Under the pieces are notes generated by a model. That model was not told the DNA's origin. It saw nothing but the letters and a program-made list of their open reading frames with translations, and did no database searches. From NCBI GenBank assembly GCA_030704615.1, contig CM060734.1:47368001-47432000 (forward strand): a stretch of DNA of 64,000 nucleotides, read 5' to 3'. How positions within the stretch are numbered: position 1 is the first letter of the stretch; each line of letters begins with the position of its first letter. Shown here in pieces: positions 9,192 through 55,119 of this stretch. The DNA is from Takakia lepidozioides. Lineage: Eukaryota; Plantae; Bryophyta. Position numbers and translations under genes: made by a program.

Positions 9192-9272
9192 TCAGGGGAG
9201 GGCCAACGTGTGCAACTCCCTGTGACATTCATAGGAGGAGTTGCGGTTGCCCAGCGAGGCAAGATGCCGACA

Positions 9273-10463: not shown

Positions 10464-11425
10464 CTTGTCTGACTCCATCAACCACTTGAGTGGCTGGTGA
10501 TCCGTGACAAGGGTGAAGAGATTGCCATATAGATAGCACCTGAAGTGTGCCACGGCCCACACTGCAGCTAAGCACTCTCCCTCATATGAGCTGTACTTAG
10601 CCTCTGCAGCGTTGTTCGAGCGGCTAGCATAAGCCCCTACGAACTTTCTTCCCTCATCATCCACCTGTGTGAGCACCGCTCCAAGCCCCAACATGCTCCA
10701 ATCCATATGCAGCTGAAAGGGACGCCCCCTGATAGGTCGTTTCAGGATAGACGTCGAGGTCAACCTCGCCTTGAGCTCTTGAAAAGCTCGTTCCTGCTCA
10801 TCTTCCCATTGCCACTCCTGATCCATCTTGGTCAGCTTGGTTAGAGCCTTTGCAATGGCACTAAATCCCTTGACAAACTGTCTATAATAGTTTGCCAACC
10901 CCATGAAAGCTCAAACTAGGCTCACATCTGTGGGGCATGGAATTTGTGCAATGGCCTCTAACTTAGTCTGCTGTACCCCCAATCCTCCAGGATATATCAT
11001 GTGACCCAGATACTCAATCTGGTTGTTGTGGAAAAACTTGCACTTCCCTGGATGCAACTTCAATCCGTGCGCTCTCAAGCGCTCCAATACCACCTGAAGG
11101 TGTCTCTCATGCTCCTCCACCGTAGCACTAAAGATGATGATGTCATCTATGTAGCACCGAGCAAAGTCCACCCCTGCTAGAATCCTATCCATGACTCTCT
11201 GAAACTCTGCAGGAGCGTTCTTAAACCCAAATGGTAAGAACCGCCACTGATATAGGCAATCCTTGCCGTGTTCATTGATCCCCCAGAATGTCGTCTTCTG
11301 CTTGTCCGCCTCCTTGATCGGCAATTGGTGATATCCGGATCGTAAATCCAAAGTGCTAAAGACCTTAGCATGCCCGATGGCATCAAAGATCTCCTCTGGT
11401 GTTGGCATGACATACTTATCGGACT
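10464..11425 (-). pseudogene. X copy 1 RT core and RNase H, inverted in place
   Basis: Minus ORFs 10911-11408 ([17 protein letters not shown]) and 10371-10904 (FQLHMDWS, EGECLAAVWAV, VTDHQPL). Flanking + strand sequence continues the polyprotein on both sides. Confidence 0.92.
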
Positions 11426-12630: not shown

Positions 12631-13850
12631 GATTAAGATTCATGGACCTCTCGCTGGCTGGTAACTAGCTCCCAATCTGTGTCAGCATTGAGGTACACTA
12701 GGGACTCTTGGCTACTGCGGTCATGTTGTTGATTATCCTCGGCCCCTTCCAGCTCATTGCCCTCATGCTCATCTGGCTCCTCGACCACCACAAAGTAGTG
12801 GTGGTGATCATCTGTTGTGCTAGGCACGTTGCCCAATACCTATATTCCACTTGAAGGGCACTCAGTAAGTCGTCTACCTCTCCCTCAGCTGTATCTTTGT
12901 CTGTTGATTCTCGTCTGGTCTCCTTGGCATGGTCTACTATCCCCCCTCCTGAGAAGCATTCAAACGGTCCCATCTTTGCTACCATGGCTTCTGGATTCAA
13001 AGGCCAAATCCTCGAGACCTTGAATCCCTTGGCAATGTTGGTAGGGGTCAGTCATTTTTTCAATGCAAGGGAGACCCATTGGGCCAGGTCCTCTTTCAAA
13101 GTGGCTCTACCCTTATGTGTCATGGTCCAAACATCTTTATATTTCCTGAAGGCAGTCTTAAAGTGCTTGAACACTGCCACATCAAGGGGCTGAATGCCAT
13201 GGGAGTTGTGGGAAGGCAGTGTAATGACATCAAGTCCTACCGAGCTTGCTTGCTTGACAACACCTATGGTAACATGTGAGCTGTGACCATCTAGAATTAA
13301 TAAATGTCTGTTTGTGAAGTAATCTCATTGCCCATTGCCTTTGCTGATTCTAGAAAATGCGATGTCCACGTGTAACCAAATTGCAGTCATCCATGCCTTC
13401 CTTTGCATTGCCATTGTTGCCCGAGATTTATATTTGTAAATGTAATTGCGACGAAATCTTTTACCTTTGAATATATATAAGTTTGGGATCTAACGTCCTG
13501 CAACAGTCAGCCGGTGAGGACGCTCAGCCACTCTCTCTGGTCTGGTGTTATGGAATGGAAGATTTTGTCCGGTCTTGGCCAGCACAACAGCACCTCCGTT
13601 TCGCCCAGCCTGGGCCCCTGACTCGTCGCAATTTCAGATTCGTGTTGGTCCATAGTTGTGCTTTTCATGTGTGAAAGGCACTGTGACTCTCTTTTGCGTA
13701 CCTTCAGCCACCTTTAAACGTAGTTGAGTCATTATCAAGGGATGTCCGATATCCTGCATTTTTTCAATGTACTGGACCAACTCAGCTTTCTCATTTGCCG
13801 TTAATGTTCCCCTGCTACATCTCTTCCTACTAGTAGTAATGCTATAAATA
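12631..13850 (-). mobile_element. pogo-superfamily (DDE_1 / CENP-B-like) DD35D transposase remnant
   Basis: Minus-strand translation gives an HTH-like segment (LTANEKAELVQYIEKMQDIGHPL), NCDESG, YIFKGKR, KAWMT and LILDGHSSH...HGIQPLD, with 35 residues between the last two Asp. Frameshifted; no TIRs found. Confidence 0.85.
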
Positions 13851-16576
13851 GATGTCTGTATCTGGAAAGAACAAAGCTCCATGTCCGCCTCCGTGATGCT
13901 CAGCCTGTCAATAGCAGCTCTGCCCAACATCATGCTAGCTCCGAGTCCACAAGAACCGCAGTGGCCGGTACCTCTTGCCTGCCGTCCCACTCACACAGAA
14001 ATGTCATCCTGGTTGTCTAACATGACAACTCCGGGTGTCACCATGGCGCGCTCAATGGCTGGCCTAGCTGGCAGCTCCGCCAACCTGACAGCTGCAACTT
14101 CCTTGCGCCTCCGTGGCAGTCTTGACCCTCACATCCTCGGATCCTTCTGCAACTACACCTCCCCTATCATCTCCATATAAGATGAGTAACATCTCCACTC
14201 TCTCAGAGTGTAGCAACCAGCCTTAACACCTCCGCTGGTCTTACCCCCGGCGTCGCAATCATGGTAGCCAGATATGGATCTGGCACACAGATGTGGCAGT
14301 CCCCAGCGCACCTAGCTCCGTAGCCTTGCAGCACTAGATATAGTGGTGTTGCCCGTGTATCTCTCCCCAATGGCATAGTAAACCCTCCGCCGCGGTAGTA
14401 ACAGTCGGGGCGAGAACTAGTGCCATGATGGCGTTCGCCTGTCTCCACCAAGGTGAATGACTGGTATCCTAGCCTGACGGCTTGCCTCCCCATGCTGTGG
14501 ATCCAACTCCACCTCTGCACCTCGTGGCTCAGGAACTCGTGCTGCTCCTCAAGTCACTGCTGCAGCCGACTCCACTTGCACTAGTGGTACCCCACCTATA
14601 GTGGTAGTGGTAGTGGCACCCCTCACTAGTGGTAGTGGTGGCCCGCACATAGTGGTAGTGGTGTTCCACCCATAGTGGTAGTGGCACTCCTTACTAGTGG
14701 TAGTGCTGCCCCGCACATGAATCCCATGTCTCCCATGTTTCCTCCCTCGGGAGCAGGAGGTGGACAATCCGGCCTTGGAGCCAGTACCACCTGAGCTGTG
14801 GCCATGACAGCGAGCCTCTGCTCTAGCTGCTGAAGCCGGTTGGCCATGCCTTGGTCAACACCCTGACCTCCACGTCCCTGGCTATGTTGAGCTTGCTCTT
14901 GGCCTGCACCTCGTGTCTGACCACCTCGTCCTCTCTAGGCTGCTCCACCTCGCCCCCGGCCACCATTGTTCCCTTGGAACTGGCCTGGGCGCAACTCAGG
15001 ATACAAACCATAGCACTGGGCTTCTCCATGCCCGTATTTGCCACAATGCCCACACTGCAACTGTGCAGGCTGTGCTTGTGCCAACCCATTGCCGCCCTCT
15101 GGGCAATCCTTCTTGACATGGGGTCCTCCACATGTCCAGCACACCACATCCGCTCGTTGTTGGTCTGCAAATGAAGGGAGAGACCCCTACATCTGAGGTC
15201 CTCTCTGTCCTTCCCTGGGCTTCATCTGAGCCCCCTTATTGCTTGAGCACGTTGGGATAGTGGGTGGCTAGGAGCACCACTACCCCGTGGTGTCTCCTTA
15301 GCAAATCCCACCATGATCATTCCACCATATTGAGCTCTATCTGCTCTGCCAGCAAAAACACATTTGCTAAGGTGGGTTGGGCCGCTTGTAGGAGAGTTGC
15401 ATCCCGCACCCTTCTCCTCAGCTCTTGTCCAATATCCCATACCAGAATTGGACTGTCTGAGCTTCCGTAACCCCCTGGGTTACATTTATCAAGCGCCTCA
15501 TGCGAGTAAAAACCTCCCTCAAGCTCTCAGTAGGCTTCCTCTAGAACTCTTGCAAGCTCCTCAACTTATCTGTCCTCACCCCTTAGTAGTTCCTTCTCAA
15601 CTCTTCGAAGAACTCCACAACATGGTTAAAAGCAAACACAGGCACTGGTGCTGGTGCAGCAGTGGCTTGGGTGGACGTCTCAGTCCCTGTACCACTAATC
15701 CCACTGCTGCTTGTGGAAGCTGTCGGTGTGGCTGCTGCCCTTGTCCCTCTAGTGCCTCTAGTGATGGAGACATAGTCGGGTGACCAGTACATCCTCCACT
15801 CCTTGATCTCAACATCATGCCCTCGCCTAAACTTATGGTAATCATCCATGGGCGGCCCCTCAGTGCTGAAACAGCCCCTTCCATGCCATGAAAGACGTAA
15901 ACAGTTGTGGATTGCGCATTTGCTGCAAGTCACATCAACTATCAAACTCTTGGACAAAATCATCCAACTCGATGGTGCCTGCCCCAGAGTACCTACGTGG
16001 CCCCTTGGTGGCTCCATACATCTCCTCCATTGTGTCCCACAACAATGGTAAGGAAACAACTTGCACCGCCGGTGTGAGTCCTCAGATTCACAATCCGAAT
16101 CAGAACCTTCCGCAGAAGACACAGGAGGTGAAGGTGGCCTAAACCACACACCTCGTCTCGTGTAACCGCTAGTATCGCTAGTGCTCATACCGGCACTTTC
16201 CCCAGCAACTAGTGGCACCTCTGTGTTGACAAACTGACACTCAATCGGTCATGAACATGTCCCTAACCCCCTCTCCATAAGGTAACTGGGTAGAGAACCT
16301 GATGCGGCTTATGGTTTGGAATACTAGGTTCCTAACATAGCCTGCACCTGCACCTACATCCACCGCAAGCACTCCCATGGTTGGCTGGTCATCATCTCTA
16401 ACCTCACCACATGAGAAACAAAGATGGTCTGACTGGTCATCAACCCAGCCTCACCATAAACAACATGCTCTAGGGTTGGATTGGCGATCAAGCCCTAGTC
16501 AACCACCTATAAAAACAAGCGCCCACACAAAACTAGCATGGCGCACAATCAAGCATGCAGGTGTGGAGGGGATCCG
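13851..16576 (-). mobile_element. Family X copy 3 (leader, gag, knuckles, protease), truncated before the DNMT
   Basis: Reverse complement of ~6330-8975 with many indels; ORFs 15583-16218, 14935-15147 and 14626-14847; local tandem expansion at ~14580-14705; breaks at FQIQTS. Confidence 0.9.
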
Positions 16577-16709
16577 CTCCATTTTTGAACCTTCAGTGGA
16601 TGGCGTAGTTTCCTGAGGTGGTTCCATTATGAGGAATGGTTGGTGGACACAATGAGGCATTGGCGGACCCTGTGGAGGCTTGCATGGGGCCTTGGAGGCT
16701 AAGTTTCCT

Positions 16710-16960
16710 GAGCTTGTGGAGGGCGGTTTGAGGAGTGTCTACAGGATGCTCTCATGGTAATGCAAGTGAGAGAAGAGAGGAAAAAAATGGGTGTTGGGAT
16801 GAGAGCGTGTTGGGGATAGACATTGCTTTAGCTTCCTTTCCTCGTAGCTTTCCACCTTCTCTATAGGCCGAGACCTTTCCGTAGGTGGAGGCAAGAGTCA
16901 GTCCGGGTTTGGGCTGGGTTGAAAGAGCGACACTATGGAGAGATTTTTGGTGTGGGGGAG
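16710..16960 (+). repeat. Diverged fragment of the X leader
   Basis: Matches ~6050-6310, including the identical block agacctttccgtaggtggaggcaagagtcagtccgggtttgggctggg. Confidence 0.75.
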
Positions 16961-17164
16961 TTGCAACAACATTCTGTCCAAAGGAATTACCTGCAGGCTG
17001 GTCTCCCCTATAGTTAAAAACTGGACTGAAAAACCCCAAAAGATTACCTGCAGGGAGGTAACCTCCTTTGTAAAGATGCAACAGGGAGACAATTCTGACT
17101 TTTCTACCGGATCAGCTACTCAAAACCGTTGTTCTTCAGAGCCCAGCCTCCCCATCAAGGTCGC

Positions 17165-19030
17165 ATTATTTATTTATTTATTTTCCACTCTGTCTGTTCG
17201 CAGCCTTCCGTGGCTCTAACCGCCACGACTTCCCATGCTTCCTGGCCACGACCTACCGTAGGCACGAACTGGCCCCAAGCGCCTCCCGTGATACCTTCGT
17301 GGTATAACGACCACGACCCCTCAACGGCCACTACCACGGCCAGGGTTCGTGGCACCCCGTGGCACTACGACCACGATACGACCACGGCCCACGGTCCACG
17401 ACCACGACTAGGGCCCATGGTATCTCGTGATACCGGCACCACGGCCCATCACATCACGACCACGACCACTGTTCACCTGCATTCCCAAGAACTCGCCACG
17501 AGTTCCCACGTGTTCCTAAGGTGTTCCCGGGCGTTCCTACGCGTTCCCGAGCTCTCCCCGAGCTAGGGTTTGCTTCTGCACCTGCTGTCGACGAGCTATG
17601 GCTTCTGCAAAGCCACCAGACGTGCTGCCATGCTCTCTTGGGCTCTCACGGCCCACCAGAGGCGCCCCAAACTCACCAAACAAGCTCTTGGCTCTCCAAC
17701 AAACTCTCTTGCTTCAGGAAACTCACAAAATGAAGCTGAAAAATACACACCTTTACCACCTTGGTGCACTTGCATCTCTCATGCATATTCTCTGGCTCTA
17801 TTCCCTGGCTCTAGGGTGCCTCGCTGCTGCCCTTCTAGCCCCGCTCTTTCCACTTCAAGAGCCCTTACACTGCTGAGTTTCAGATTGAAACTCCAACTTA
17901 GCACATGTTTTACAAGTGCACTGATTTGCACACAAGAGGGACCAGCCCCCTCTCTTCACTCATACCTCTTCATGAGCTTGGAGCTGGAGCTCCCAACAAG
18001 CTGCGATGCATCCCCTCGCAGCTCCAATATTCGGCTGCTCCTCATCCACCCGCAACAATTAGTTTCGGGCATAAATACCAGGAGTTGATCATATTATCTC
18101 CAACCTGCAACACGCTAGCATGCGCAGCCCACATTCCTGCAGCTCATTAACTCGGCCTGCAGCTGAAGAAGACGACCACCAGTTCGCCCACTCGTGGTCA
18201 ACATCTTCTCCGTTTCACAATAGAAACCCAAACTTGGTTGCCATAGCATTGAGCTATGCAACACTGACCGCCTCTCTATCCATTGCAAACCTGCAACCTG
18301 TTCGCCTTGCACTCTATCCGCTTTGGATAGGCTCATGCACTGATCCCTACACTCTAGGCTGAACCGCTTATCATGATCTGAAAACACAAGTGCTACAACT
18401 AACTCGAACCTCGCACTCACAGACTCGAGCTGATCTTTCTCAAGTGATAAAGAAAGAACGATACAAGCACACAAGCTTTCTCAAACTCACGCACTTGCAT
18501 ATGAAACATCACTCATATATTAAGTCGAGCCAAGTGCACCCCACGCCATGGGGAATCCACACTACGGCGCCATAGCTAGACGCGGTGAGGCTCAACTCAA
18601 GAAAGATAAACCCACCGCGATCTGCCGTGAAGATAGGACTCTCAGCAAGATCACTGGGTGTATGTAGCGATGACATCGGCGAGGGCAGCAAAGGCGTGAG
18701 TAGAACCCGTGAGCAGATTCCATTATCCGTGAGCAGATTCCCCCAAGCGTGAGCAGATTATTGATGCGGCCCTAAAAGCGAGGGAACGAGTGGGCCTATT
18801 GCCGTGGACACAAACTCCACTGTAACGACGCAATCTTCTCTCCATCAAACGAAGACAAACAGGCTCCATGACGACAATGTGACACGAATGTGCGATGAAA
18901 AACTGACGGATGAATATATCTCTGATGAATGTAAAAGGGAATGGATGAACATTGGATGAGTGTCGGATGAAAAATTGCTTAGATGAGTGAACCATGGATG
19001 ACTGCAACAACATGTATCCTTACCGATCAG
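17165..19030 (-). repeat. Diverged relative of the X 5' non-coding region (left arm of an inverted pair)
   Basis: 17830-18365 is the reverse complement of ~47070-47430; 17165-17780 is inverted relative to 21940-22590. Confidence 0.7.
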
Positions 19031-38248: not shown

Positions 38249-40620
38249 TCAAGTTTCTCGAGTTCTCTCCTCATCTTGATAACCGGATGCCCGCCCTTTT
38301 CTACCCACAACAGCACCATAACTGGCTGGCACAGTTGGCTCATCAGACTCCTGCTCTGAAGGGACCTTTACTGCCTGTGAGTTAGGTAACTCCAAGCCTT
38401 GATAACTTCGCAATGCTAAGTACTCAGCACTTGATTTTACACCCTGATTGACACGTCCAGAACTTACAACAGCCAATGCAGACCCCGAATGCACTTTAAG
38501 AGCTCGTTCTGCAGTGCCAGACAATAACATTGCTGTAGAGTCCTCCTCTGTGCCACCACCTGCTGTGGGTTCCATTGATAAGGCAATCCTTCAGTACCAT
38601 CACATCTAACGACTGTGCTGACATTTTTGTGGGAAAGGTCATGTATACACCTACATGTAGTGTCTTGTGCAGCATGCATTATATGCACACCAGTGCTGAC
38701 TTCCACCATCCAATCAGAAATGACATAATTACAATAAACTCAGAAGTCATATGGGATCTATACACGCACCTGGAAGTGGCCTGTTGAACTCATTTGCAGT
38801 GAACTCCGGCAGCTTCCCAAACTCCAGGCAAAAGGCTCCAGTCCATTGCCTGCCTTCTACAAAAGCCATTTCTGCCTCGAAGGGTGTGATGAGGGGTGCA
38901 AAATATTCTTTGCTGTCCAAAAGTGCAGTTTGTGCACACGCAACCAGCACAAACACATCACACTCTGGAAAGTTTGCCAATTTTGCTGGATTGGGTTTCC
39001 CCATAACCATTGTATATGCCTTCTTGCCTGCAATAAGATTAATTCTGTAAGTAATTAACAGATAAACTCTATTAAACATGAAACTGTTCGAGTGACATTC
39101 CAAATACCCAAACAAGTAAGTTTCTACACCTGGGCCGCCTCTGTAACTTTGGGGAGCAGGGCAACTGGCAGTCTCTTCCCCATTTTTGCTAGGAATCACG
39201 GGCTTCAAAATGTGGCCATTCAAAAGACTCCCATCGGCGCTGACAGTACGTTGCTATCTATAACTGGCACTGAGTTGCAACTGTGCATGCAGAGAAAGTG
39301 ACAGGACTGTACTCTGCTGAAATGATATCATTTCACTGGGCTGTCATGCATTTTGGTGCAGCTAGCAGGTCACTTTCAGCCAGATATATTACACTGAAAC
39401 AGTTCATAGTTTGCTCTCAAGTCAGGTACTGGGGATACAAGAAATCACTTGCCTGCTGTCTCCACAATGTTTCGCACACGCTGGATTGCTTCACCATAGC
39501 CAGCAACACCCAGAGTACCAACCACAATACCCACCATGTTGGCATCTTTGGCCCGCTCAACAAGGTAATATCTGCGCATCAAATCTCTGCTGCTACTGGC
39601 CAAGTCAGCTACCAACAAGTTCCTCTTGGGGTCATATCTTGCAACCTCACTAGTATTGTATGTGAGCATCACATTTGTCAGTGCGGGGCCTTCTTCTCCA
39701 ATCCAAAGTATCGCATAATCTTCCATCTTATGGTGCCCTGGAAAACACCATCTCATTCCTCCTAGACTGTGTTTGGAACTCGCCCCTTCTTGAGCACTCG
39801 TTACTCTCTTTCTCGCCTCTTCTGCAAGAGAAAGATCGTGATCACAGACGCAGTTGGAGGGTCGTAATTGACATCTCGAATCAGAGCTCTTTTGTTGCAC
39901 GTGTTGAACTTCAGCTATTGAAAAATCGCGTGACAGATCCGGAGTTGGGCCAGTAATATTGCCTCTCACGTTTTCGTCTTCACCAGACTTGTGACTCATT
40001 TGGCACCCTGAACACCCAGCCATGTCTAGTCGTGTACACTCCCCAGCAATTCCCACTTTTGTTCCTCCTTGCTCACTGATATATCTGAAGGATACAGAGG
40101 GCTCCATCTCATGGCACGGAACGTCTGCAAACACAACCTGTCCACTTTCTTCCACTTGAGCTCCGAGACTCTGTGTCACCTCCTGTTCGATGTCGTGAAG
40201 CGCATGGGCATATTCCAACCCAAAAAGAACTAGAATAGGCTTCTTCTTGAGGGACCGAATTTCCAAAATCTGCATTGCACAATTCGCTACGCCGACGCTC
40301 GCCTTTCCAAACACGAACAAAACTGGTAATCTCGAAGTCTGGCTCAGGCAAGCATGACCATAGTGCACCACGCACTGCGCATCCACATGGGCAGCTGCCA
40401 CTTCGTCAACACAGCAGCTTCCATAGCTAGTGTCTGCCATCACATACAGCTGCAACCCATCCCCCCTCTCACCCACGGCAACCCGCAGTGCCGCTGTCAC
40501 AGCCACGCTATGCTCTAGCAGATCGTCAGGGAACTGCAAAGCAACCCTGCAGAAGCCACGGCCAACTATATACTCCGCAGTAGCACGAATGTCATACTGC
40601 TCCATAAGATCTACTGCCAT
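38249..40620 (-). CDS. DPH2: 2-(3-amino-3-carboxypropyl)histidine synthase subunit 2 (diphthamide biosynthesis protein 2)
   Basis: Exons 40620-39453, 39027-38770 and 38562 (or 38559)-38249. Motifs VALQFPD, ADTSYGSCCVDEV, VHYGHACLS, GIVVGTLG, GKPNPAKLANFPECDVFV, ITPFEA, RSYQGL and GRKGRASGY. Confidence 0.93.
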
Positions 40621-40826
40621 GGCAGCCCTTGTGCATCCAACACTGCCTCTCAACGTCAATCTTCCATCTCCGCGTGCAGCTCAAACTCCCAAGAAAAGGA
40701 ACAGCAAGAAGAAGACCAAGAGAGCTCTTCCATGCAGGGATTGAGTCACAGCAGCATCGGTTGCCCTGGCAAAGCATCTGAGAGCAGTCACACAAAAATC
40801 ACAAACCTCACCCCACACCATCGCCC

Positions 40827-41860: not shown

Positions 41861-42586
41861 TGTCGCGGCCCTTCGCCTTGAGGGCAGGGGGGTCGGGACA
41901 CGAGAGGGGCTGCCCTTGTGGTGGGGGCAGTGGCGACAATAGATACGGGGGCTAAAGCACCTTTGAGTACCCAAGGCACTCAAGGAGGCGGAGGCGCTCA
42001 CTAGGTGGAGCCCCGCACACCGGATTGCGGTGGGGGTGGTTCCACGAGGGGTGGTGATAGCTTAGTGGGACTTAGTGGGGGTGGCATAGGAATCATCATG
42101 GGGGCGAAGACCTTGTGGTGGGAGTCGTGGGGAGTCTTGGGACTCATCACGGTCCAATGGGACCATGGTGAGTGGGCCAAGACTCACCGCGACTCATCAT
42201 CGGGAATCGAGGGTTTTCGTGGTGGTTCGCCAAAAAATGGCATGGTTGTTTGTGAAACCCCCGCGGACAGTCACAGAAGTATATATAGGGAGTAATAACC
42301 CCGAGAACGGTGCAAGCCCGTTGGTGACCAAAAACTAGTGAATAAGCATGCGAGCCGGAAAGCGACCAAGGTGTGGGGAGCTATTCCGGACTGCCATCGA
42401 CCAAAGGGAATTTCCACTAGGCCCAAATTGGGAGAGGGTCTTGTGGAGGAGTAAAGGGGGACCGTTATGCCCCGGTGAGCAGCCGAAGCTCCGAGTTGGC
42501 CCGGCGGCCAGTTTGGGAGTTAGGCGTGCGCATCGAGTGAGTAACTATGACTTGAAGGGGAGCTTACCGAAGGGAGGTGCGCGACA
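41861..42586 (+). repeat. Element Z 5' LTR
   Basis: Direct repeat of 54389-55114, about 30 mismatches by eye. Confidence 0.95.
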
Positions 42587-42588
42587 CT

Positions 42589-42600
42589 TGGTATCAGAGC
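42589..42600 (+). promoter_or_regulatory. Primer-binding site for tRNA-iMet (element Z)
   Basis: TGGTATCAGAGC, 2 nt after the LTR end. Confidence 0.92.
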
Positions 42601-42669
42601 TTAGAGTTCAGTGCACAATCTCATCATGGGGGCGACGTGTCACCGAAGCGGCCATTTGAGGAAGCGATG

Positions 42670-45600
42670 CATGCCTTCGGAAGCGAGGCCGCTCAAGAAC
42701 GGGAGGAATCTGAGGAGTCGGAGCCCGAGGAATCCCTGAGAGCTCCGACAGACCAACAAATGCCTCCCATGCCAGCAGCCTTTTGGGAAGGGTTGTTGGC
42801 GCAGTTTGGTGGGACATTGAAAGACGTGTTGAAGGTGGCTAATGCCACTTCCACTAAGGCAAAGTTTAAGGTGAAGCCTAAGGAACCCGGCACCTTCGAG
42901 GGCATCCGAAATTGGAAGGCACTCAACACCTGGCTCTTGGAGCTAGAGCAGTACTTCCCGGCGGCCAAGTTGAGTGACGAGGATCGGGTGGAAGTGGCTC
43001 CCACCTATTTGAGGGGCTATGCTCAACAATGGTGGCAGAAACACCTTCACGACCGAGGTCCAAACCCGGAGACCTTGAACTGGAGTGGGTTCAAGGAACT
43101 CATGAAGAGACAGTTTGTGCCCATCAACGCATCTTGGCTCGCCCGGGACAAGATGAGGAATTTGAAGCAAACGGATGACATTCGGGGATATGTTCAGGCT
43201 TTCAATGTGCTGTTGCTCGAAGTCGCGGACATGGCAGAACCAGAAATGGTCTTCAACTTTGTGGCGGGACTGGCCCCATGGGCCAGACGGAAGTTGGAGG
43301 AGAAGCCACCTAAGACTTTGAACGAGGCAATTGAAAGGGCTGAATGTTTCTCGGATGTCCCTAGGGGCGAAGACAAGGCCGTACGGAGCTGAACAACAAG
43401 AAGGTCCAGCGAGAAGGTGACTCCTTCCGACCGGAAAAAAAGTGGGATAGGCCACGCGGTGACAATGGCACATGGAAATCGAAGGGAGGGCCCTCACACG
43501 TCAAAACGACACCCGGTGCCCCGAAAGAAAAACCAGGTGTGGCGGCTTATGGCGGATAGAAGGCGACCTTCGATGGAGTGTGCTTTAATTGCGGGGAACC
43601 CGGGCACATGGCAAAGAAGTGCGCGAAACCCCGACAATTGAACATGACTCGGGCAACCACGGAGTTGTCCGAGGATTCCATTAGCCGCTTGGTGGAGGCA
43701 GTGGTTGCCAAGACTTGCAAGGTAGGCAACTACTCTTGTGAGTTGTATCAGGATACTGGCGCCCTGCGTAAAGAGAGTCAGTTATTGTTCGTGAGTGGGA
43801 TAATTTCCGGAACTAACGTGTCATTGTTGGTGGACACAGGAGCGTCGCACTCCATCATGACACCGGCAACGGCACGGAAGCTGGGACTCCCAACAAGTGA
43901 TGTGGGGGCTTCTATTGAGGTGCATTTTGCTAAAGGAGAACCACAATTGGCGACGAGGTTGGCGTTCGATGTTCCTCTTTAGCTCGGGAGTTGGGACAGA
44001 CGTGAGAACTTCACCATTTGCGAGATCGATGGAGTGGATCTCATTTTAGGGATGACTTTTTTGAGCAAATCAGAAGCGGTCATAGATGGCCGCAAGAGAA
44101 CAGTCACGCTACCGTGTGGGAATGGTAGCGAAGTTTTACGAGTTTTGGAGGCGCCCAACCCAGTGGGAGGACGAATAAATGTACTATCAGCAAAGGAGTG
44201 GGCCGTGGAGGAGCCACACGAGCCCCAATTTTTGCTTTACGTAAGACAAGTGAATGGAAAAGGCGATGGGGAGTCGAGCCCAGATTGGATCAAGGGGATT
44301 TTGGAGAAATATCAGGATGTGATGCCGGAGGATTTACCAAGCGGCTTGCCACCGCGAAGGGGAGTTGACCACAAGATTGAGGTGATACCGGGATCGGAGC
44401 CGCCTGCCAAGGCACCCTACCGGTTGAGCCACAGAGAGTTGGTCGAACTGAAGACTCAGCTTAAGGATCTAATGTCAAAGGAGTACATCCGGTCGAATAA
44501 GTCACCTTACGGAGCCACGGTGCTATTCGCAGACAAAAGGATGGGACGCTGCGGATGTGTGTCGATTACAGGGCTCTGAATAAGGTGACTATCAAAAATT
44601 GATATCTTTTGCCAAGGATCGATGACCTCTTCGATCGGTTGGCAGGAGCGAAGTATTTCAGTCGGATCGATTTGCGCTCCGGATATCATCAAATTCGAGT
44701 GGCGGAAGGAGATGAGGAAAAAGACCGCGTGCAGGACAAGGTATGGTTCCTATGAGTTCTTGGTGATGCCTTTTGGGCTCACCAATGCACCCACAACCTT
44801 TAGCACGCTAATGAACAGCCTTTTCTAGGAGTGGTTGGACGACTTTGTGATCGTGTACATCGACGACATCTTGGTGTACTCGAAAACAAAGGAAGAGCAC
44901 CTGGAGCACCTCAAAAGGGTGTTCCAGAAATTACGGGAAAGGAAGCTGTATGCCAAAGCTTCAAAGTGCGAATTCGGGGTCACAAAAGTGGAGTTCTTGG
45001 GGCATGTGATTACACATGATGGGATCAAAATGGATGACAAAAAGGTGAGAGCAATCTTGGACTGGGAGCCTCCGACTTCGGTCCCAGGAGTGCGATCCTT
45101 CTTATGACTCACCTCCTATTACCGAAAGTATGTGAGAAATTTTGCCGACATCGCGGGGCCGTTGTCAGACCTCCTGTGTAAATCCAAAGTCTGGGTATGG
45201 AACATCTTTTGTGGCCAAGCTTTTGCCGAGTTGAAGCAGCGGATGGCGGAAGCTCCTGTCCTGAAAATCCTGGAGTTCGACCGCCCATTTGAGATTCATA
45301 CGGATGCGTCGGACTTCGCGATTGGAGGTGTACTCATACAGGATGGACGTCCAGTGGCTTACGAAAGTAAGAAACTGAATGAAGTGGAGCGGCGGTGCCC
45401 AACGCACGAGAAAGAAATGAAGGCGGTGGTGCATTGTCTTGAGTTTTGGCGCCACTATATTGGTTCCAACCCGGTGAAGGTGTTCACGGACAATGTCACG
45501 GTGAAGTATTTTGCCACGCAGCCTAAGTTGTCCCCAAAACAAATTAGGTGGCAAGACACTTTGGCACTGTTCGACGTGGATATCCAGTACAAACCGGGAT

Positions 45601-46977
45601 GGGACAATGTGGTGGCCGATGCTTTAAGTAGAAAGTAGCAGCTCATGATGGTGTACGGGGGCGAGACGGCGCTCCAAAGGAAGATCCGGAAGGCTTACCA
45701 GAAGGATGAAATGGCGAAGTCCGTGATGTGGGACTTGAGGATGGGGGTTAAATCGCAGTTCCACTTGCAAAATGGACTGCTCCGATACAAGCAAAAGCAT
45801 CTTTACGTGCCAAAGGGAGGGATCAGAGATAGTCTCTTAAGAGAATGCCATGATGGCCCGCTTGCGGGCCACGGCGGAGCCAAGCGCACCGCGACACTCT
45901 TGAAGAAAGAGTATTTCTGGCCCAAACTGAGGGAGGAGGCCGAGGAGTATGTCAAGACATGCACCACATGCCAACAAAACCGGAGCGAGTACAAAAAGCA
46001 AGCGGGGCTGTTACAACCCTTGCGGATTCCAGAGGGGTCTTGGGAAAGTGTCTTGATGGATTTCATGACTGCTATGCCGTTATCAAAAGGATTCGATGCA
46101 ATCATGGTGGTAGTGGATAGGTTCAGTAAAATGGGCCATTTCATCCCCACCAAGGAGACGGCAACGGTGCAGGAAACGGGGCGACTTTACTTCGCCCACG
46201 TCTTCAAGCATCATGGACTCCCGAAGGATATTGTCTCAGACCGCAATCCAAAGTTCACAAGTAAGTTTTGGAGGGCACTTTGGAAGAAAATGGGGACGAG
46301 GCTCAAAATGAGCATTGCCTTCCGACCTACGACGGACGGCCAAACGGAAAGGGTGAATTCCGTGGTGAAGCAGATCTTGCGGAATTACGTGTCGGCTGAC
46401 CAATCGGACTGGGTGGAGCACTTGGATGCGGCAGAGTTATGTTATAATAACACAAAACATTCCGCAACGGGAGTTTCCCCTTTCGTATTGGTCTATGGAA
46501 AAGCACCTCTGGTGCCGACAAGTTGGGCCGCCCAACCGGCAGCAGCGACAGTGCTGGAAGAACGCGAGCGTTTGTTGAAGCTCGCAAAGTACAACATTGC
46601 CAAAGCTAGGAAACGGTATGAACGGCAGGCGAATCGGAAGCGGAGGGAGGTTAAGTTTGAGGCAGGCACGGAGGTCTGGTTGAACATCAAAAAATTTCGA
46701 CTACCTTCGGAAGTGAGTCCGAAGTTCGTACCTCCGTATGCGGGACCCTTTCGCATCCGGAAGGTTATGAATGAGGATGTATATGAATTGGAGCTGCCGG
46801 CAAATAGCAAGGTGCATCTGGTATTCCACGTCTCCCTTTTGAAGCCTTATTTCAAAGATGAAGCGCGTCCGAATCGGCCTCAAGTGTTGTGTCCGCCACC
46901 TGTGCTGTTGGATCATGAAAATGAACCTGAGTATGAGGTGGAGGCAGTGCTTAAGTCGAGGAGGTTCAAGAATCGAG
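42670..46977 (+). pseudogene. Element Z gag-pol (gag, CCHC, PR, RT, RH, INT, truncated chromodomain), disrupted
   Basis: ORFs 42577-43392, 43578-43982 (CFNCGEPGHMAKKC, LVDTGASH), 44835-45107 (YIDD), 45132-45638 (TDASD) and 45645-47021 (HHCC, DDE core, GPF, EYEVEAVL). Confidence 0.92.
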
Positions 46978-48279
46978 TGTCAAGTTATTTTACCACTAGT
47001 GTGAAACTAGCTAGAAAATAGCTAGCTTTTACATATTGACATTTGGGATTGGCCCAAGTTTTCAGATGAGAAGCAACTCAGCTTAGAGTGCAGGGATCAG
47101 TGCATGAGCCTATCCAAAGCGGATAGGGTACGATGGCGAACAGGTTTCAGGTTTGCAATGGATATAGAGGCGGCAGCCTGTGTTGAAGAGCGGTGTTGCA
47201 TAGCTCGACGCTATGGCAGCCAAGTGTGGTGAGTGTGGAGCTGCGAGGGTGTTAGATGCAAGTCACAGTTATCGGGAGCTCCAACTTCAAGCTCATAAGG
47301 AGGTATGAGTGAAGAGAGATGGCTGATTTCTCTTGTATGCAAGCCAATGCATTTGTGGCTATGTTGAGTTGGGGGTTTCAATCTGAAACTCCAGCGGTAA
47401 GAGGGCTCTTGTCATGGCAAGAGCAGGGCTGGAACAGGAGCTAAGAGGTGCGGCAAGGCCATGGAATCTGCACCTAAGGTTTCAGAGCTTGGAAGAAGAG
47501 CTCTTGCACCACAAGAGGAGTGTCTTGTGGCTGGAAATGTAAGCCTTAGGGTTTCTGGAGCTTGGTAAAGGCTGTGGAGTGCTTAGTCTTGTCTTAGAGA
47601 GCATCAAGGAGCCAAGATAGGGGGCTAATACCTCTTGTGTGAAGAGGTTGCATGTGTGGAGCATGTATTCAGCTCATTGAAGCTTCCATCTTCAAGCTTG
47701 GAGGGCAAGCAAGGAAGAGGGAAGGGCTGACTTCCCTTATGTGAGGGCAATGCATGTGTGGAGCATGCTTTCAGCCTGTTTGAAGGCTTGTACTTTCAGG
47801 TTTGGGAGTGCAAGAAGAGAAGGTAAGGGGCTGATCTACTCTTGTGATGTCAGTCCGACACTTGTAGAGCGTGTTCTGAGTTGGGGTTTCGAACTCAAGC
47901 CTAGATAGAGCATGGCTCTTGAAGTGGCAGGTGTAGGGGGCTGGAATAGGCTCTAAGACAGATGCTATGGCCAAAGAAAACGCTTGAATGAGTGCTCACA
48001 AGGGCTGGAAACCAGCAAGGCTTGGTTATTTGCCATTGAGTTTAGTGGCGTGTTTGGGGAGTCTAAGTGAGAAAGAAGGCTTGGTTTGTGGCAACCATCT
48101 TCCTCATGGCTTAGGGCTACTATTGGTGGTGTGTGGGAGCCGAAAGAGCAAGAATACCTTGCTGATTTCTTCACAGCCGCCATAGCTAGGTACAAAGAAG
48201 CCTAGAGTCCAAGAGACACAAACCCTAGCTTGGCGTGGCTAAACCCCTTGGAGAAATGGCTAAACTGTCATGAGTGGCC

Positions 48280-48945
48280 ATGGATGGGGCTGTGACGAGC
48301 TGTGACAGGCTGTGATGGGCTGTGACAGTGTGGCGAGCTGTGACAGGCTATGGCGGGCTGTGACAGGCTATGCCCTGTGGCCTGTGGGGCTGTGACACGC
48401 TGTGAGGGGCTGTGAGGGGCTGTGACAGGTTGTGCCATATGGCCTGTGGGGCTGTGACACGTTCTGATGGGCCGTGAGGGGCTATGACAGGCTATGCCCT
48501 AGCTTGGCGTGGCTAAACCCCTTGGAGAAATGGCTAAACTGTTATGAGTGGCCATGGATGGGGCTGTGACGGGCTGTGCCTTGTGGCCGGTGGGGCTGTG
48601 GCGAGCTGTGACAGGCTATGCCATGTGGCCTGTGGGGCTGTGACGGGCTGTCTGGGGCTGTGACAGGCTGTGACGGGCTGTGCCCTGTGGCCTATGGGGC
48701 TGTGAGGGGCTGTGACAGGCTATGGCCTTTGGGGCTGTGTCCCTGTGACCTTTGTAGGGCTGTGACAGGCTGTGCCTGTGGCCTTTGGGGTTGTGACCTG
48801 TGGCCGTGGGGGGCTGTGACAGGCTGTGACATGTGGCTTTGGGGCTGTGACGGGCTGTGACAGGGTTGCGGCCTGTGGGGCTATGACCCTGTGACCTGTG
48901 TAGGGCTGTGACAGGCTGTGGCCTGTGTGGGGCTGTGACGGCTTT
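48280..48945 (+). repeat. Expanded 10-bp GGCTGTGAC minisatellite with an internal duplication
   Basis: Same unit as 5598-5925; block 48224-48297 is repeated at 48498-48571. Confidence 0.9.
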
Positions 48946-49703
48946 GACCAGTGATCTGTGTGGGCCTGTGCTGGTCTGTGGTGGCCCATGTGGACGACCT
49001 GTGCTGACTCGTGGAGGCACTGGTGGACTGCCTAAAGACTGGCATGTGGTCTTGAAGGCCAAATTTTGAAGCTCGTGCAGGGCGGTTCGAGTAGTATCTT
49101 CATGATATTCCCATGGTCATGCAAGTGAGAGAAGAGAGAAGAGGAAGAGTGTTGGGATGAGGGTATGCTAGGGTTAGGCATTGCTTTAGTTTCTCTTCCT
49201 TGTAGTTTCCACCCTCTCATTAGGCCAAGACCTTTCCGTAGGTGGAGGCAAGAGTCAGTCTGGGTTTGGGCTGGGGTGTCCTTGCAGGAGCAACACTGTG
49301 GAGTTGTTTTTGGTATGGGGGAGTTGTCGTTCTGATTTCTTGTGTTTGGATCCCCTCCATACCTGCATGCTTGACTGTGCGCCATGTTAGTTTTGTGTGG
49401 GCGCTTGTTTTTATAGGTGATTGGTCCGGATTTGATCACCAGCCAGTCCTAGAGCATGCTGTCGATGGTGAGGCTGGGGTGATGACCAGTCAAACCATCA
49501 TTGTTTCTCATGTGGTGAGGTTGGAGGTGATGACCAGCCAACCATAGGAGTGCTTGCGGTGGATGCAGGTACAGGTGTAGGCTATGTTAGGAACCTAGTA
49601 TTCCAAACCATAAGCCGCAATAGGTTCTTTATCTGGTTACCTTGTGGAGAGGGGGTTAGGGACATGTTCATGACCGGTTGAGTGTCAGTTTGTCAACACG
49701 GAG

Positions 49704-52290
49704 GTGCCACTAGTTGTTGGGGACAGTGCCGGTTCGAGCACTAGCGATACTAGTGGATACATGAGACGAGGTATGCGGTTTAGGCCATCTTCACCTCCTG
49801 TGTCTTCTACGGAAGGTTCTGATTCGGATTGTGAATCAGAAGGACTCATACCGGCGGTACAAGTTGTTTCCTTGCCATTGTTGTGGGACACAATGGAGGA
49901 GATGTATGAAGCTACTAAGGGGCCACGAAGGTACTCTGGGGCGGTGGGCACCATCGAGTTGGATGATTTTATCCAAGAGTTTGATAGTTGGTGTGATTTG
50001 CAGCAAATGCGCAATCCACAACTATTTACGCCTTTCATGGCATGGAAAGGGCTGTTTCAGTACCTTGAGGGGCCGCCTATGGATGATTACCATGAGTTCA
50101 GGCGGGGGCATGAGGTTGAGATCGAGGAGTGGAGGATATACTGGTCACCCGACTATGTCTCCATCACTAGGGGCACTAGAGCCACGAGGGCAGTGGCTAC
50201 ACCTACCGCTGCACCGGCAGCTTCAGCAAGCAGCAGTGGGACTAGTGGGACTAGTGGTATAGTAGCTACGACGTCCACCCAAGCCACTACCACACCAGCA
50301 CTAATACCCGTGTCTGCCTTCAACCCTGTTGTGGAGTTCTTCGAAGAGTTGAGAGGGAACTACCAAGGGGTGAGGACAGAGAAGTTGCGGAGCTTGCAAG
50401 AGTTCCAACGGAAGCCGACTGAGAGCTTGAGGGAGGCTTGCACTCACATGAGGCGCTTGATAAATGTAACCCAAGGGGTTACGGAAGCTCAGGCAGTCCA
50501 ATTCTGGTATGGGATATTGGACAAGGAGCTGAGGAGAAGGGTGCGGGATGCAACTCTCCTACAAGCGGCCCAACCCACCTTAGCAAATGTGTTTTTGCTG
50601 GCAGAGCGGATAGAGCTCAACATGGTGGAGGAACGAGTGGTCATGGTGGGATTTGCTAATGAGACACCACGGGGTAGTGGTGCTCCTAGCCAACCACTAC
50701 CTCAACGTGCTCAAGGCAACAAGGGGGTTCAGGTGAAGCTCAGGGAAGGGCAGAGAGGACCTCAGATGCAGGGGTCTCTCCCTTCATTTGTTGGCCAACA
50801 ACAGGCGGAGGTGGTGTGTTGGACATGTGGAGGACTCCATGTCAAGAAAGATTGCCCAGAAAGTGGCAAAGGGCCGGCACAAACACAGCTTGCACAATTG
50901 CAGTGTGGGCATTGTGGCAAGTATGGGCATGGAGATGCCTAGTGTTATGACTTGCACCCTGAGTTAGCGAGGCCAGTTGCAAAGGAACAATGGTGGCTGA
51001 GGGCGAGGTGGAGCACCTCAGAGAGGACGAGGTGCTTAGGCACGAGGTGCAGGATGAGGGCAAGCACAGTATGGCCAAAGATGTGGAGGTTAGGACGTTG
51101 ACCAAGGCATGGCCAACAGGCTTCAGCAGCTAGAGCAAAGGCTTGCTGCCATGGCCACAACTCAAGTGGTACCAGCTCCAAGACCTGAGGGTCCACCTCC
51201 TGTTCCTCCTCAGCAACGTCATCCTGACGGAGGAGAGATGGGAGTTTATGTGTGGGGCAGCACTACCATTAGTGCAGGTGGAGTCTGCTGCAGCCGTCAC
51301 TCGAGGAGCTGCACAAGTTCCTGAGCCACGAGGTGTAGAGGTGGAGTTGGATCCGCAGCGTGGGGAGGCAAGCCGTCAGGCTAGGTTGCCTCAATCATTC
51401 ATTTTGGCGGAGACAGTGTCGACGACATCCATGGCACCTAATTCTCACCCACGGATACCGAGGCGGAGGTTATTGTGTCATTGGGAAGAGCTACACGTGC
51501 AGCACTGACACCTGCTGCCAAGGCTAGTGCAGCTAGTGTGTTGTTGGGGGCGGCCACCTCTGTTTGTCAGGCCCCACTATTCTCGATAACCATGATTACG
51601 ACGCCGGGGGTAAGACCAGCTGTAGTGTTCAGACTAGCAGCAACACTCTGTGAGAGTGGGGAGGTCACTTCATCTTCTGCGGAGTTAGTGGAAGGTGTAG
51701 TGGCAGAGGGATCCTCAGATTTGAGGGTCAAGACTGCCACGGCTGCGCCATGACAAGCTGCAGCTGCCAGGTTGACGGAGCTGCCAGCTAGGCCAGCCTT
51801 TGAGCGCGCCATGGTGACACTTGGAGTTGTCTTGTTAGACAACCAGGATGACATTTTCTCTTTGAGTGGACCGGCAGGCAAGAGGTACCGGCCACTGTGG
51901 GTCTTGTTGGACTCGGGAGCTCAGCCACTGATGTTGGGCAGAGCCGCTATTGCAGGTTTGGGCCTCATGGAGGCAGATATGGAGCCTTGTCCCTTCCAGA
52001 TACAGACATCTCTGGGAGGATCAGAGCAGGCTCGGGGCATGACACGACGTGAGTTGGCCATTAGACTATAGCCGGATCATCCTATAGATGGCTCAGTGAT
52101 GCGAGCCAAGGCCATTGTGACAGACGCGGTCTCTTACGATGTCCTCGTTGGTGAGGCAGTATTGTATCCCATGGGCTTCACCCTGGATTTTTGGGAGGAG
52201 TCAGCATCCTACAGGCCTGGATGGCAGTCAGGGGATGGTCATCGTGTACAGCTCCCTATGACATTCATTGGGGGTGTTGCTGCTGCCTAG
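49704..52290 (+). pseudogene. X copy 2 gag, two zinc knuckles and aspartic protease
   Basis: ORF 49704-50942 (CWTCGGLHVKKDC, CGHCGKYGHGDA*C); 51772-52071 (VLLDSGAQ); 52096-52290 (YDVLVG). Confidence 0.88.
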
Positions 52291-52593
52291 CGGGGCAAGA
52301 TGCCAACACTAGCAGCCTTCACAGCTACAGTTAGTTGGCCTGGAGAGTTGTTGGAGGGCAATGCCCAAGCAAAGGATGTGCCACCTCCAGCAGAGCAAGA
52401 TGACATGCATGGTACGGTGGAGTTGCCTGCCATGGTTGCTCACACTCCATTGTGGGGTACGAGCAAGGATTTGCAGCAGACTGCTGATAGACGTGTGCAA
52501 CAAGCCTGGGTAGAGGCCTTTGTACCGTCAAGAGAGGAGGAGAGTGCGGGGATTGCACCATGATCACCTCAGTTGTCTCCATTGGACACCACA

Positions 52594-53545
52594 GGCATTT
52601 GTCTTCTGGACTTGTTTGGCGGGATCAGCACCGGATTGGCTGCTGTATTGCAGGTAAGTGTACAAGTTTGGCGTTACCTGTATGTGGAGAGGGATGAGAC
52701 TGCACAACACGTTTCACTTTGCCATGTTGCTCAGTTGGTGCAACAGTACCCTGAGTTGTTGCCGGTGTCGGCAGTTCGTGGATATCAGCAGGCCTTGACA
52801 GTAGACATTTCGTTGCTGGGGGCGCAGGACTTGGAGCGGGTTGGCTCCATTGATCTGGTAGTGGCAGGTTGGCCCTGCCAAGAGCATTCATCAGCCGGGC
52901 ATGGAATGGATTGCGAGACTCGAGGTCGGGTCTGTTTTGGGAAATGGTGCGGGTTTTGCGCCACTTGCAGCCAAGCTGTATCTCCAGCATACATCTTGGA
53001 GAATGTGCCACTGATGGGCGATTCTCGGGCCAGGGTGATGGCCAGTGTGCATCAAGTCCGGTCATGGCTTGGGTCAGTAGTGTTGCTGGATGCAGCTGTA
53101 GTGGGGTCACGGGCTCATCGTCCACGGCTATGGTGGACTAACTTGATGCCACCCGCACTGCTCAAGCGTGCATTTGATGGGGTGCAGCGGCCAGCACACC
53201 TCACAGTGGATAGCATTTTGGACAAAATGAGGCAGTCTTAGCATGTGAGACACGATGACCGTTTGCCTTTGGCAGTGGTCAACAAGGTGGGTCAACCACA
53301 AGCAGCATTACCTACACTGCTCAGCTTCCCAGGATCGCATGCTTTCCGGGATAGTGGACCTGGCCTCCTGTGGGATGATTAGTTGCAGCAGATAGTGGAG
53401 CCTAATGCTGACGAGCGTGAGCGGGCAATGGTTTTACCACTGGTACCACGGCGGTGCTGTCTCTTTCTGAGGCATCACATCGTCAAGTGTTGGGGCAAGC
53501 AATGGATCTCAATTGCTCGACCTGGATTATCAGCTTGGATATGGC
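52594..53545 (+). pseudogene. Retrotransposon-encoded C5-cytosine DNA methyltransferase (DNMT3-like), disrupted by stops and frameshifts
   Basis: Motif I LDLFGGISTG, II YVERD, III DI, IV DLVVAGWPCQ (catalytic Cys 52876-52878), V GLRDSRSGLFWEMVRVL (alternate frame), VI ILENV, VIII AHRPRLWWTNL, IX ERERAM(G)F and X RQVLGQAMD. Intronless and in the same frame as the protease. Confidence 0.92.
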
Positions 53546-53704
53546 TGAGCAACGCAAAGTGCGGAGTCCACTTCCCTCGATGGTCTCTCTGCCTACCGAG
53601 ACGGTACATACAGTGAATGGGGGCGAGCATGAGAGGACCACGGGGTGCAGACATCCATGGCACACGTGGGAGATGCTCGAGGTTCAGAGGGAGTTGGCAG
53701 CCAG

Positions 53705-53888
53705 GGCGGCGGTGATGGATGAGGTTGGGGATTTTTCTCGGGTTGAGGAAGTCCTTGAGGATGAGATGATGGGGCAGGATGAGGCCTTGTCATTGAGGTG
53801 GCGGTGATGGATGAGGTTGGGGATTTTTCTCGAGTTGAGGAAGTCCTCGAGGATGAGATGATGGGGTAGGATGAGGCCTTGTCATTGA
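53705..53888 (+). repeat. ~91-bp tandem duplication in the DNMT-RT linker of X copy 2
   Basis: gcggtgatggatgaggttgggg...gccttgtcattga occurs twice here and once in copy 1. Confidence 0.9.
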
Positions 53889-54388
53889 CTGAGCAGGTAG
53901 GGAGTACTGCTCAAGAGGTTGCAACATAGCAACCACTGGACGCGTCCTCTACCTCTAAGCCCACTGGACTTTAAAGTTGCAGTTACGGAGGACAATTAGG
54001 AGCCTGACATTGGACCCATTGTCACCGGAGGAGAGAGACGACGTATACGGCGGTTCCGGAGGGCTTACATGAATTGTTTTGCCTTCAGTTTGAAGGACTT
54101 GGGAGCACTGAAGGGTCAAGAGATTCGTATTGAGTTGGCCACTGATACGCCAAATATTGTGTGTTCCTATTTTGTTTGGAATGGTGATGCATGGTATGGT
54201 TGGCTAGTGTGTAGAATGCATGCTAAGCTTACAAAGTGGGAGAGGTAAATTGGATTAATCGTGTGTTTGTGTAGTGCCGAAATCGGGTGACTCCCACCCA
54301 AGGGGCAAGGGATGCCACAACTTGGATGTTTGTTTCTACAAAATTAACAAGTCGATGAGGACATCGACTCCCTGTTGGTAGGGGTGTG

Positions 54389-55114
54389 TGTCGCGGCCCT
54401 TCGCCTTGAGGGCAGGGGGGTCGGGACATGAGAGGGGTTGCCCCTATGGTGGGGGAAGTGGCGACAATAGATGCGGGGGCTAAAGCACCCTTGAGTGCCC
54501 AAGGCACTCAAGGAGGCGGAGGCGCTCACTAGGTGGAGCTCCGCACATCGGGTTGCGGTGGGAGTGGTTCCACGAGGGGTGGTGGTAGCTTAGTGGGACT
54601 TAGTGGGGGTGGCATATGACTCACCATGGGGGCGAAGACCTTGTGGTGGGAGTCGTGGGGAGTCTTGGGACTCATCACGGTCCAATGGGACCGTGGTGAG
54701 TGGGCCAAGACTCACCGCGACTCATCATCGGGAATCGAGGGTTTTCGTGGTGGTTCGCCATAAAATGGCATGGTTGTTTGTGAAACCCCCGCGGACAGTC
54801 ACAGAAGTATATATAGGGTGTAGTAACCCCGAGAACGGTGCAAGCCCGTTAGTGACCAAAAACTAGTGAGTAAGCGTGCGAGCCGAAAAGCGACCAAGGT
54901 GTGGGGAGCTATTCCGGACTTTCATCGACCAAAGGGAATTTCCACTAGGCCCAAATTGGGAGAGGGTCTTGTGGAGGAGTAAAGGGGGACCTTTATGCCC
55001 CGGTGAGCAGCCGAAGCTCCGAGTTGGCCCGGCGGCCAGTTTGGGAGTTAGGAGCGCGCATCGAACGAGTAACTATGACTTGAAGGGGAGCTTATCGAAG
55101 GGAGGTGCGCGACA
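54389..55114 (+). repeat. Element Z 3' LTR
   Basis: 726-bp direct repeat of 41861-42586. Confidence 0.95.
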
Positions 55115-55119
55115 CTTGT

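Follow-up and report, generated by a model that had tools for sequence, protein, structure and literature searches.

The element at the Takakia locus

The 64,000-nucleotide stretch of the moss Takakia lepidozioides analysed here (contig CM060734.1, positions 47,368,001 to 47,432,000; hereafter referred to as the window) contains three copies, all broken, of a Gypsy-type retrotransposon in which a DNMT3-like C5-cytosine DNA methyltransferase (DNMT) domain lies between the protease (PR) and the reverse transcriptase (RT), with an in-frame stop, conserved among relatives, behind the DNMT domain. The copies were compared with relatives' DNA from 80 metagenome loci (L-numbered) and with proteins from named relatives (P-numbered). 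Family A consists of Sphagnum-type copies, which group with Sphagnum P0016 in the DNMT tree; L019 is one of the two copies of the distant family B; and family C (L045-L080), found in the same metagenome sets, is a sister family. The members from Marchantia, Calypogeia, Sphagnum and Klebsormidium were compared as proteins only.

The main copy, on the plus strand, begins with a non-coding 5' region (47058..49760, without the true 5' end) matching the other window copies at 5161-5604 and 16676-18385. The gag frame that follows (49761..50942) has two zinc-knuckle-like motifs (at 50817 and 50904), a 63% match to Marchantia P0005 and a match to Retrotrans_gag below the cut-off (E 0.018); it closes at a decay stop, with frameshifts beyond. 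The aspartic protease (51772..52245), with LLDSGA at 51904-51921, matches Asp_protease_2 with an E value of only 0.077, versus 2e-4 in L019. It is followed by the decayed DNMT domain (52573..53534), by a 92-bp tandem duplication in the linker (53705..53888) present, among the window's copies, in the main copy only, and by the stop, TAG CAA CCA (53927..53935), which ends the first open reading frame (ORF1; Gag-PR-DNMT). The RT-containing frame starts immediately behind it (53936..54153) and includes a tentatively predicted long-range RNA stem (53942..54041). The copy is cut at 54153, where the contigs' loose ends also lie; contigs from three DNA runs span all 30 bins of 46500-54400, and the parts of the element cannot be ranked by them.

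The initial annotation, based on the sequence alone, had assigned the pieces starting at 51475, 51772, 52096, 52300, 52573 and 53383 to one reading frame, and this was borne out, with stops at 51751, 52069, 52288, 52561, 53239 and 53380. The canonical order of the catalytic motifs was likewise recovered (LFGG at 52612, GWPCQ at 52867, ENV at 52999, AHRPRLWWTN at 53113, ERERAM at 53413 and RQVLGQAMDLN at 53481). The frame had been described as broken mainly by point stops; such stops are present, two of them (53239 and 53380) in the DNMT domain, but there are also frame breaks near 52904, 52971 and 53429. Between PCQ and ENV, some 22 codons have left the frame, GLRDSRS being read in another one at 52908, and motif X, past the break at 53429, is shifted as well. 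The placement of the DNMT domain between protease and RT is supported as an order, but RT is nearly absent from the main copy. The domain had, however, been taken as part of Pol, and the stop at 53927 had been overlooked: in the window's clade DNMT ends ORF1, and the stop behind it is not decay, since it is found again at 10035 and throughout the family. The main copy itself is dead and truncated, and cannot make the enzyme.

The second copy, reported at 9273-9750 as bearing the same domain in the same position, does have it at the same place relative to PR and RT, but contains only its C-terminal half (9271..9743, plus strand). A frame-preserving deletion of about 754 bp precedes this half and has removed the counterpart of 52309-53062, and motifs I, IV and VI with it. 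The stop of this copy, also TAG CAA CCA (10035..10043, plus strand), is in frame with DNMT and RT. The RT and RNase H (RH) domains (10464..11423) are inverted in place, on the minus strand (RVT_1, E 4.5e-32; RT_RNaseH_2, E 3e-31), and the integrase (INT; H2C2 and rve, 11871..12368, plus strand) lacks its 3' end. The third copy (13850..18385, minus strand) comprises the 5' region, gag and part of PR, and is cut before DNMT. In both the main copy (~48280-48980) and the second copy (5597-5972), the 5' leader contains a GC-skewed array of tandem units 20-42 nt long.

The full layout is seen in L019, a single frame of 2,407 codons encoding Gag-zinc knuckle-PR-DNMT-RT-RH-INT-PHD, with a lone stop at 5083 between 1006 and 8227. 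The Gypsy domain order (Gag-PR-RT-RNase H-DDE integrase) is found in L019 and, allowing for the inversion, at 5161-12368 of the window. In the RT tree, which included 25 unnamed rows with DNMT between RNase H and integrase, the RTs of all 49 DNMT-bearing rows were separated (support of 99) from the RTs of two ordinary Gypsy elements in the window, which were the sole outgroups. The window copies lack 3' ends, and no TG..CA ends or target duplication are visible there. Two full identical long terminal repeats (LTRs) were not found; instead, the direct repeats of the relatives are split (A..BAB), clearly so in L026, L053 and L079 (three of the 23 loci examined) and partially in others. All three have TG..CA ends, and two of them (L053 and L026) a 4-bp target duplication, which is unclear at L079; L026 belongs to family A and thus to the window's clade. 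The relatives' integrase bears a C-terminal PHD finger.

The methyltransferase domain

Judged by sequence and fold, the domain is a DNMT3-like C5-cytosine methyltransferase. The search with PF00145 that the initial annotation had proposed recovered the window domain (E 6e-5; 23 bits, for a cut-off of 22 bits) and, with 51 bits, that of L019. The best sequence matches of the window domain in the PDB were, in order, DNMT3A, 3C and 3B, followed by DRM2, and the family profile scored 75 bits with DNMT3A, 43 with tobacco DRM and 34 with M.HhaI. The predicted structure of the L019 domain (predicted local distance difference test, 91) has DNMT3B and DNMT3A on CpG DNA as its nearest folds (TM score 0.71), and the top 30 folds listed are all DNMT3. 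The domain is unrearranged, the permutation typical of DRM being absent. The catalytic cysteine, the glutamate of ENV and RxR are kept in the 17 domains aligned; the catalytic loop of family C reads WECQ in place of WPCQ. A recent phage origin was considered and is not supported: phage methyltransferases are 23-31% identical (15 rows listed) and matches in viral contigs are mostly partial. In an Atlas feature search, two mostly viral PF00145 clusters ranked level with a streptophyte one, at 0.96.

Ratios of nonsynonymous to synonymous change (dN/dS), another of the checks proposed at the outset, indicated purifying selection on DNMT in stop-free or nearly stop-free relatives (0.13 for L018/L019, 0.09 for L045/L053 and 0.10 for L052/L053) but not in the window, where the pair of copies gave 3.97 for the 117 codons of the DNMT half and 0.9 for gag. 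Decayed copies of family C had values of 0.16-0.40. C/T differences amounted to 0.18 in CG, 0.18 in CHG and 0.05 in CHH contexts; we read the high ratio of the window pair as the result of decay after insertion at methylated cytosines, and it lends no support to selection.

Taken by themselves, three broken copies with dN/dS near or above 1 between them would fit a host DNMT3 fragment captured once and carried as a functionless passenger, with the stop as ordinary decay passed on by descent. This explanation is most improbable, and we consider it already refuted by the L019 frame, with its lone stop in 2,407 codons, by the conservation of the stop and by the dN/dS values of the relatives. Furthermore, 99 clusters of a 50%-identity library match with E below 1e-30, and the proteins of the window and family A are 60-81% identical at saturation of synonymous sites (proportion of synonymous differences, pS, 0.69-0.79). 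The same pS values led us to reject the idea that this moss and the Sphagnum-type family recently exchanged the element horizontally.

The stop behind the methyltransferase domain

Stop contexts were compared in 47 DNMT-RT pairs with both probes no more than 900 nt apart, from 46 of the 80 loci and one window copy. Both window copies have TAG CAA CCA behind DNMT, and no variant is listed at 53927-53935 among 730 contigs, which would represent other copies in the host. One contig from a run that may be either RNA or DNA crosses the stop without a gap, and was given no weight for this reason. In family A, all 19 copies have TAR CAA CYC (TAG or TAA followed by CAA CCC or CAA CTC); each of the 14 that are in frame has the stop 108 codons ahead of the RT probe, the other five have the same word, and the remaining stops of this family are scattered, with at most two copies per position. 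Both copies of family B, L019 included, have TAG CAG TTA. CAR-YY follows a stop triplet at a background rate of 0.7-0.9% (46/5364 and 466/70265). We interpret the shared context as conservation, because the lineages share an ancestor and the distances between them saturate synonymous sites.

The DNMT tree, built from element domains only and midpoint-rooted, included domains of 270-380 aa accompanied by another element domain, the first 30 unnamed rows with DNMT between RNase H and integrase, and 11 of the 80 loci. It grouped the window, families A and B, Marchantia, Calypogeia and Sphagnum in a clade of 42 rows, with strong support (99) in the Shimodaira-Hasegawa-like approximate likelihood ratio test. 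This clade contains 37 database proteins, 28 of which end 64-175 aa past DNMT and five within 34 aa; the other four are fused Marchantia gene models without part of the linker, a different part in each.

The six bases following the stop correspond to the read-through consensus of tobacco mosaic virus (TMV), CAR YYA, which is about 10% efficient (PMC2754532): CAA CCA in the window and CAG TTA in family B match it fully. The frame behind the stop is coding from its start (dN/dS of 0.09 between L018 and L019), and in three lineages RT lies in frame with the stop across linkers that differ in length. In TMV, murine leukaemia virus (MuLV), Tca2, SIRE1 and RIRE2, a single in-frame stop likewise sets the ratio of upstream to downstream product (PMC2754532, PMC2194720), TMV having the same hexamer 3' of it. 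The stops of MuLV, Tca2, SIRE1 and RIRE2 part gag from pol or pol from env (PMC2194720), whereas that of the Takakia family lies after protease and DNMT. Retroelements require Gag in large excess over Pol (PMC2194720). The read-through layout, which is the more original point of this study, is well supported as sequence, and in the window's clade the stop is likely to be read through, which would place DNMT, unlike RT, at the level of Gag.

Alternatively, the stop could be real while RT-RH-INT comes from an mRNA that is spliced or has its own start, or from re-initiation, DNMT still being made at the Gag level. Family A and L018 have an ATG three to five codons past the stop, gene models from Marchantia and Sphagnum cross the stop by leaving out linker sequence, and the promoter at the Tca2 junction provides a precedent (PMC2194720). 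However, the ATG is not shared, the first methionine being at codon 92 in the window and 117 in L019, versus 5 and 3 in the others; RT is in frame with the stop in three lineages; and the gaps in the gene models vary from model to model, CAR-YY being the conserved part. We consider this alternative unlikely, and read-through of the stop remains the preferred explanation.

Distribution and possible role of the methyltransferase-bearing elements

The initial annotation suspected a land-plant host, and the DPH2 gene (38747..40680, minus strand) confirmed this: in a tree of 28 rows, it joined Sphagnum and Ceratodon in a clade of mosses (support 100/99) from which liverworts, ferns and seed plants were separate. 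The similarity search with the DNMT domain matched 62 longer proteins. Calypogeia and Marchantia supplied the best of these, at 62-65% identity, and further named matches came from Sphagnum, Closterium, Chromochloris and Monoraphidium; among the 8,000 best word-sharing candidates scored, no named fern, lycophyte or seed-plant match was found, which is weak evidence of absence. A profile search also recovered KFL_009030040 of Klebsormidium nitens (P0366; E 3e-85 to the family profile). The domain follows RNase H or precedes integrase in 120 of 251 domain-bearing proteins, which end after Gag/PR-DNMT in 47 cases, are fused to RT in 25 and show the domain alone in 59. Elements with DNMT between RNase H and integrase make up a single clade (99) of the DNMT tree, including the chlorophyte Chromochloris (P0051). 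This second architecture, RT-RNase H-DNMT-integrase-PHD, is the largest class (L043:8279-12544, L044, L046, L047, L057 and P0051), and we found no published description of it.

DNMT-bearing retrotransposons were already known from Symbiodinium and Klebsormidium, as the initial annotation had stated (PMC5890265). Its suggestion of novelty in land plants holds for the range, which we did not find published, but not for the PR-DNMT-RT architecture, which is known from K. nitens. The KnitGypsy-Dnmt3 element of that alga also has a DNMT3-like, unrearranged domain under purifying selection in a Gypsy-type element, with DIRS-like repeats and an integrase (Fig. 4c legend; PMC5890265), comparable to the A..BAB repeats of L026, L053 and L079. 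P0366, which we take as a copy of it, has the same PR-DNMT-RT-RH-INT order. It differs in that DNMT lies in the Pol ORF (PMC5890265), whereas DNMT ends ORF1 at a conserved stop in the window's clade; a continuous Pol ORF with DNMT is absent from this clade and present in family C. Moreover, the window family occurs in land plants, P0366 falls outside the 42-row clade, and the relatives bear a C-terminal PHD finger, "PHD" being absent from the text of PMC5890265. SymbioDIRS-Dnmt3 and EpiLTRs are also retrotransposons with a C5-methyltransferase of their own (PMC5890265; bioRxiv 10.64898/2026.05.21.726589), but are DIRS elements or have DNMT4-related domains with DAM and chromodomain, and are described as captures separate from the streptophyte Gypsy-DNMT3 (bioRxiv 10.64898/2026.05.21.726589).

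The Gypsy-DNMT3 elements are cited as belonging to "streptophytes" in PMC12344493 and in the same preprint, the accessible part of which has no mention of Marchantia, bryophyte or readthrough. The REXdb paper describes Gag-PR ORF1s in some plant groups, with neither "methyltransferase" nor "readthrough" in its accessible text (PMC6317226), and land-plant members are not reported in the available parts of PMC6453930, PMC10952607, PMC11982613, PMC6317226 and bioRxiv 2021.11.30.470311. We found no published report of the family in mosses or liverworts, Marchantia included, or of a stop conserved in frame behind DNMT and ahead of RT; subscription genome papers, Repbase or supplements may hold one. 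The range in mosses and liverworts is a solid extension of a known kind of element.

The main copy lies inside an unrelated, ordinary Gypsy element (41861..55114, plus strand), the LTRs of which (~41861-42586 and 54389-55114) are 95.5% alike; this element has a chromodomain-like tail broken near 46977 and a primer site that we take to be of the tRNA-Met type. A further ordinary Gypsy element occupies 55112-60595, with an extra copy at 411-1354 (minus strand). A decayed DDE_1 (pogo/Tigger-like) transposase (12700-13849, minus strand; E 1.6e-13) separates the second and third copies. The window also contains an exon of a PPPDE/Peptidase_C97 gene (33505-33984; E 2.5e-26) and, at its start (1-398, minus strand), a frame resembling, by eye, an eIF4A-type helicase fragment.

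The reading we favour, with a probability of about 0.66, is that of an old moss Gypsy-type element producing a DNMT3-like enzyme at capsid levels by means of a read-through stop and methylating its own cDNA in the particle. Most ribosomes on a single mRNA would stop at the UAG and release Gag-PR-DNMT, a minority reading on to append RT-RNase H-integrase-PHD. Many copies of DNMT would thus enter each particle, within which the protease would free them, and the enzyme would methylate the cDNA before integration, most probably at CG, by analogy with SymbioDIRS-Dnmt3, which methylates CG de novo in yeast (PMC5890265). The new copy would arrive marked as old host DNA, or be silenced at once, and the PHD finger of the integrase would steer insertion by histone marks. 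A broader proposal is more tentative, and we give it somewhat less than an even chance: that a clade of retrotransposons widespread in mosses and liverworts shifted its DNMT3 to the more highly expressed side of a programmed read-through stop, so that each particle is loaded with methyltransferase at capsid stoichiometry and the cDNA is pre-methylated, that bursts of expression could supply the bryophyte nucleus with a de novo methyltransferase so far unrecognised, and that the module has taken up three positions across green plants (the end of ORF1, Pol before RT, and between RNase H and integrase).

Several observations weigh against the favoured reading. Family A, with CAA CCC, has five of the six consensus positions and an ATG 6 nt past the stop, and its DNMT has a median dN/dS of 0.52 (120 pairs); the values for the window pair given above point the same way. 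Family C has no conserved stop (14 of 25 copies are in frame, and L045, L053 and L079 have none), Klebsormidium P0366 runs through with a 199-aa linker, and P0049 is fused even though its RT groups with the stop clade; the stop-free family C and P0366 imply that some members manage without DNMT in bulk. A similar stop junction in Tca2 hid an internal promoter and directed no read-through in yeast (PMC2194720). Stems have been reported at viral read-through sites (PMC3159437), and the one predicted here starts about 15 nt past the stop in both the window and family A. Nevertheless, its z scores ranged from -2.7 to -3.0 in three of six sequences and from -0.4 to -0.9 in the remaining three, and covariation was seen in two of 24 pairs, a number reached by 134 of 500 shuffles. 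Third codon positions in the stem arms are identical in 9/10 cases, versus ~0.43-0.45 in RT (p ~0.005, for arms chosen post hoc). The stem may, at best weakly, be proposed as an aid to read-through.

CpG at codon boundaries is depleted in the element (24 versus 73 expected, 0.33) relative to the two neighbouring Gypsy elements (104 versus 137, 0.76; p 8e-5), but the DNMT-less integrase in L024 is equally depleted (0 versus 9.9 expected). This depletion was not counted as a footprint of self-methylation, L024 being the sole usable outside control. The DNMT of L046 has 0 CpG at codon boundaries, versus 21.9 expected. Finally, KnitGypsy-Dnmt3 methylated no yeast DNA, a result its authors call inconclusive (PMC5890265).

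That result also bears on the possibility that the domain serves otherwise, through an RNA target, structural nucleic-acid binding in the particle, or methylation, once released, of chromatin at the target site or genome-wide. Bulk production would suit a structural or trans-acting role, and the PHD finger on the relatives' integrase, the unspecific CpG loss and the WECQ of family C are consistent with one. Conversely, the catalytic residues are kept across the aligned families, the nearest folds are those of DNA-bound DNMT3, and the DIRS-borne DNMT3 of Symbiodinium is active de novo. We judge such a role improbable, although slightly less so than a separate mRNA for RT, and retain methylation of the element's own cDNA as the preferred function.

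The benefit to a transposon of encoding the very enzyme that usually silences it has been a puzzle since 2018. The earlier hosts, Symbiodinium and Klebsormidium, are awkward to study, and the presence of members in the genetic model Marchantia polymorpha makes the question testable. Many "DNA methyltransferase" gene models of Marchantia and Sphagnum are these elements, some of them wrongly spliced across the stop: P0003, P0005, P0006, P0009, P0013, P0017 and P0048, labelled hypothetical or DNA methyltransferase, belong to the family, and several of them omit linker sequence around the stop. Verified read-through in plants was known only from viruses as of 2009 (PMC2754532), and this family is a candidate for its verification in a plant nuclear element. 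The stop would also tell which level of the enzyme the element wants, namely that of the capsid, about ten times that of RT if TMV-like rates hold.

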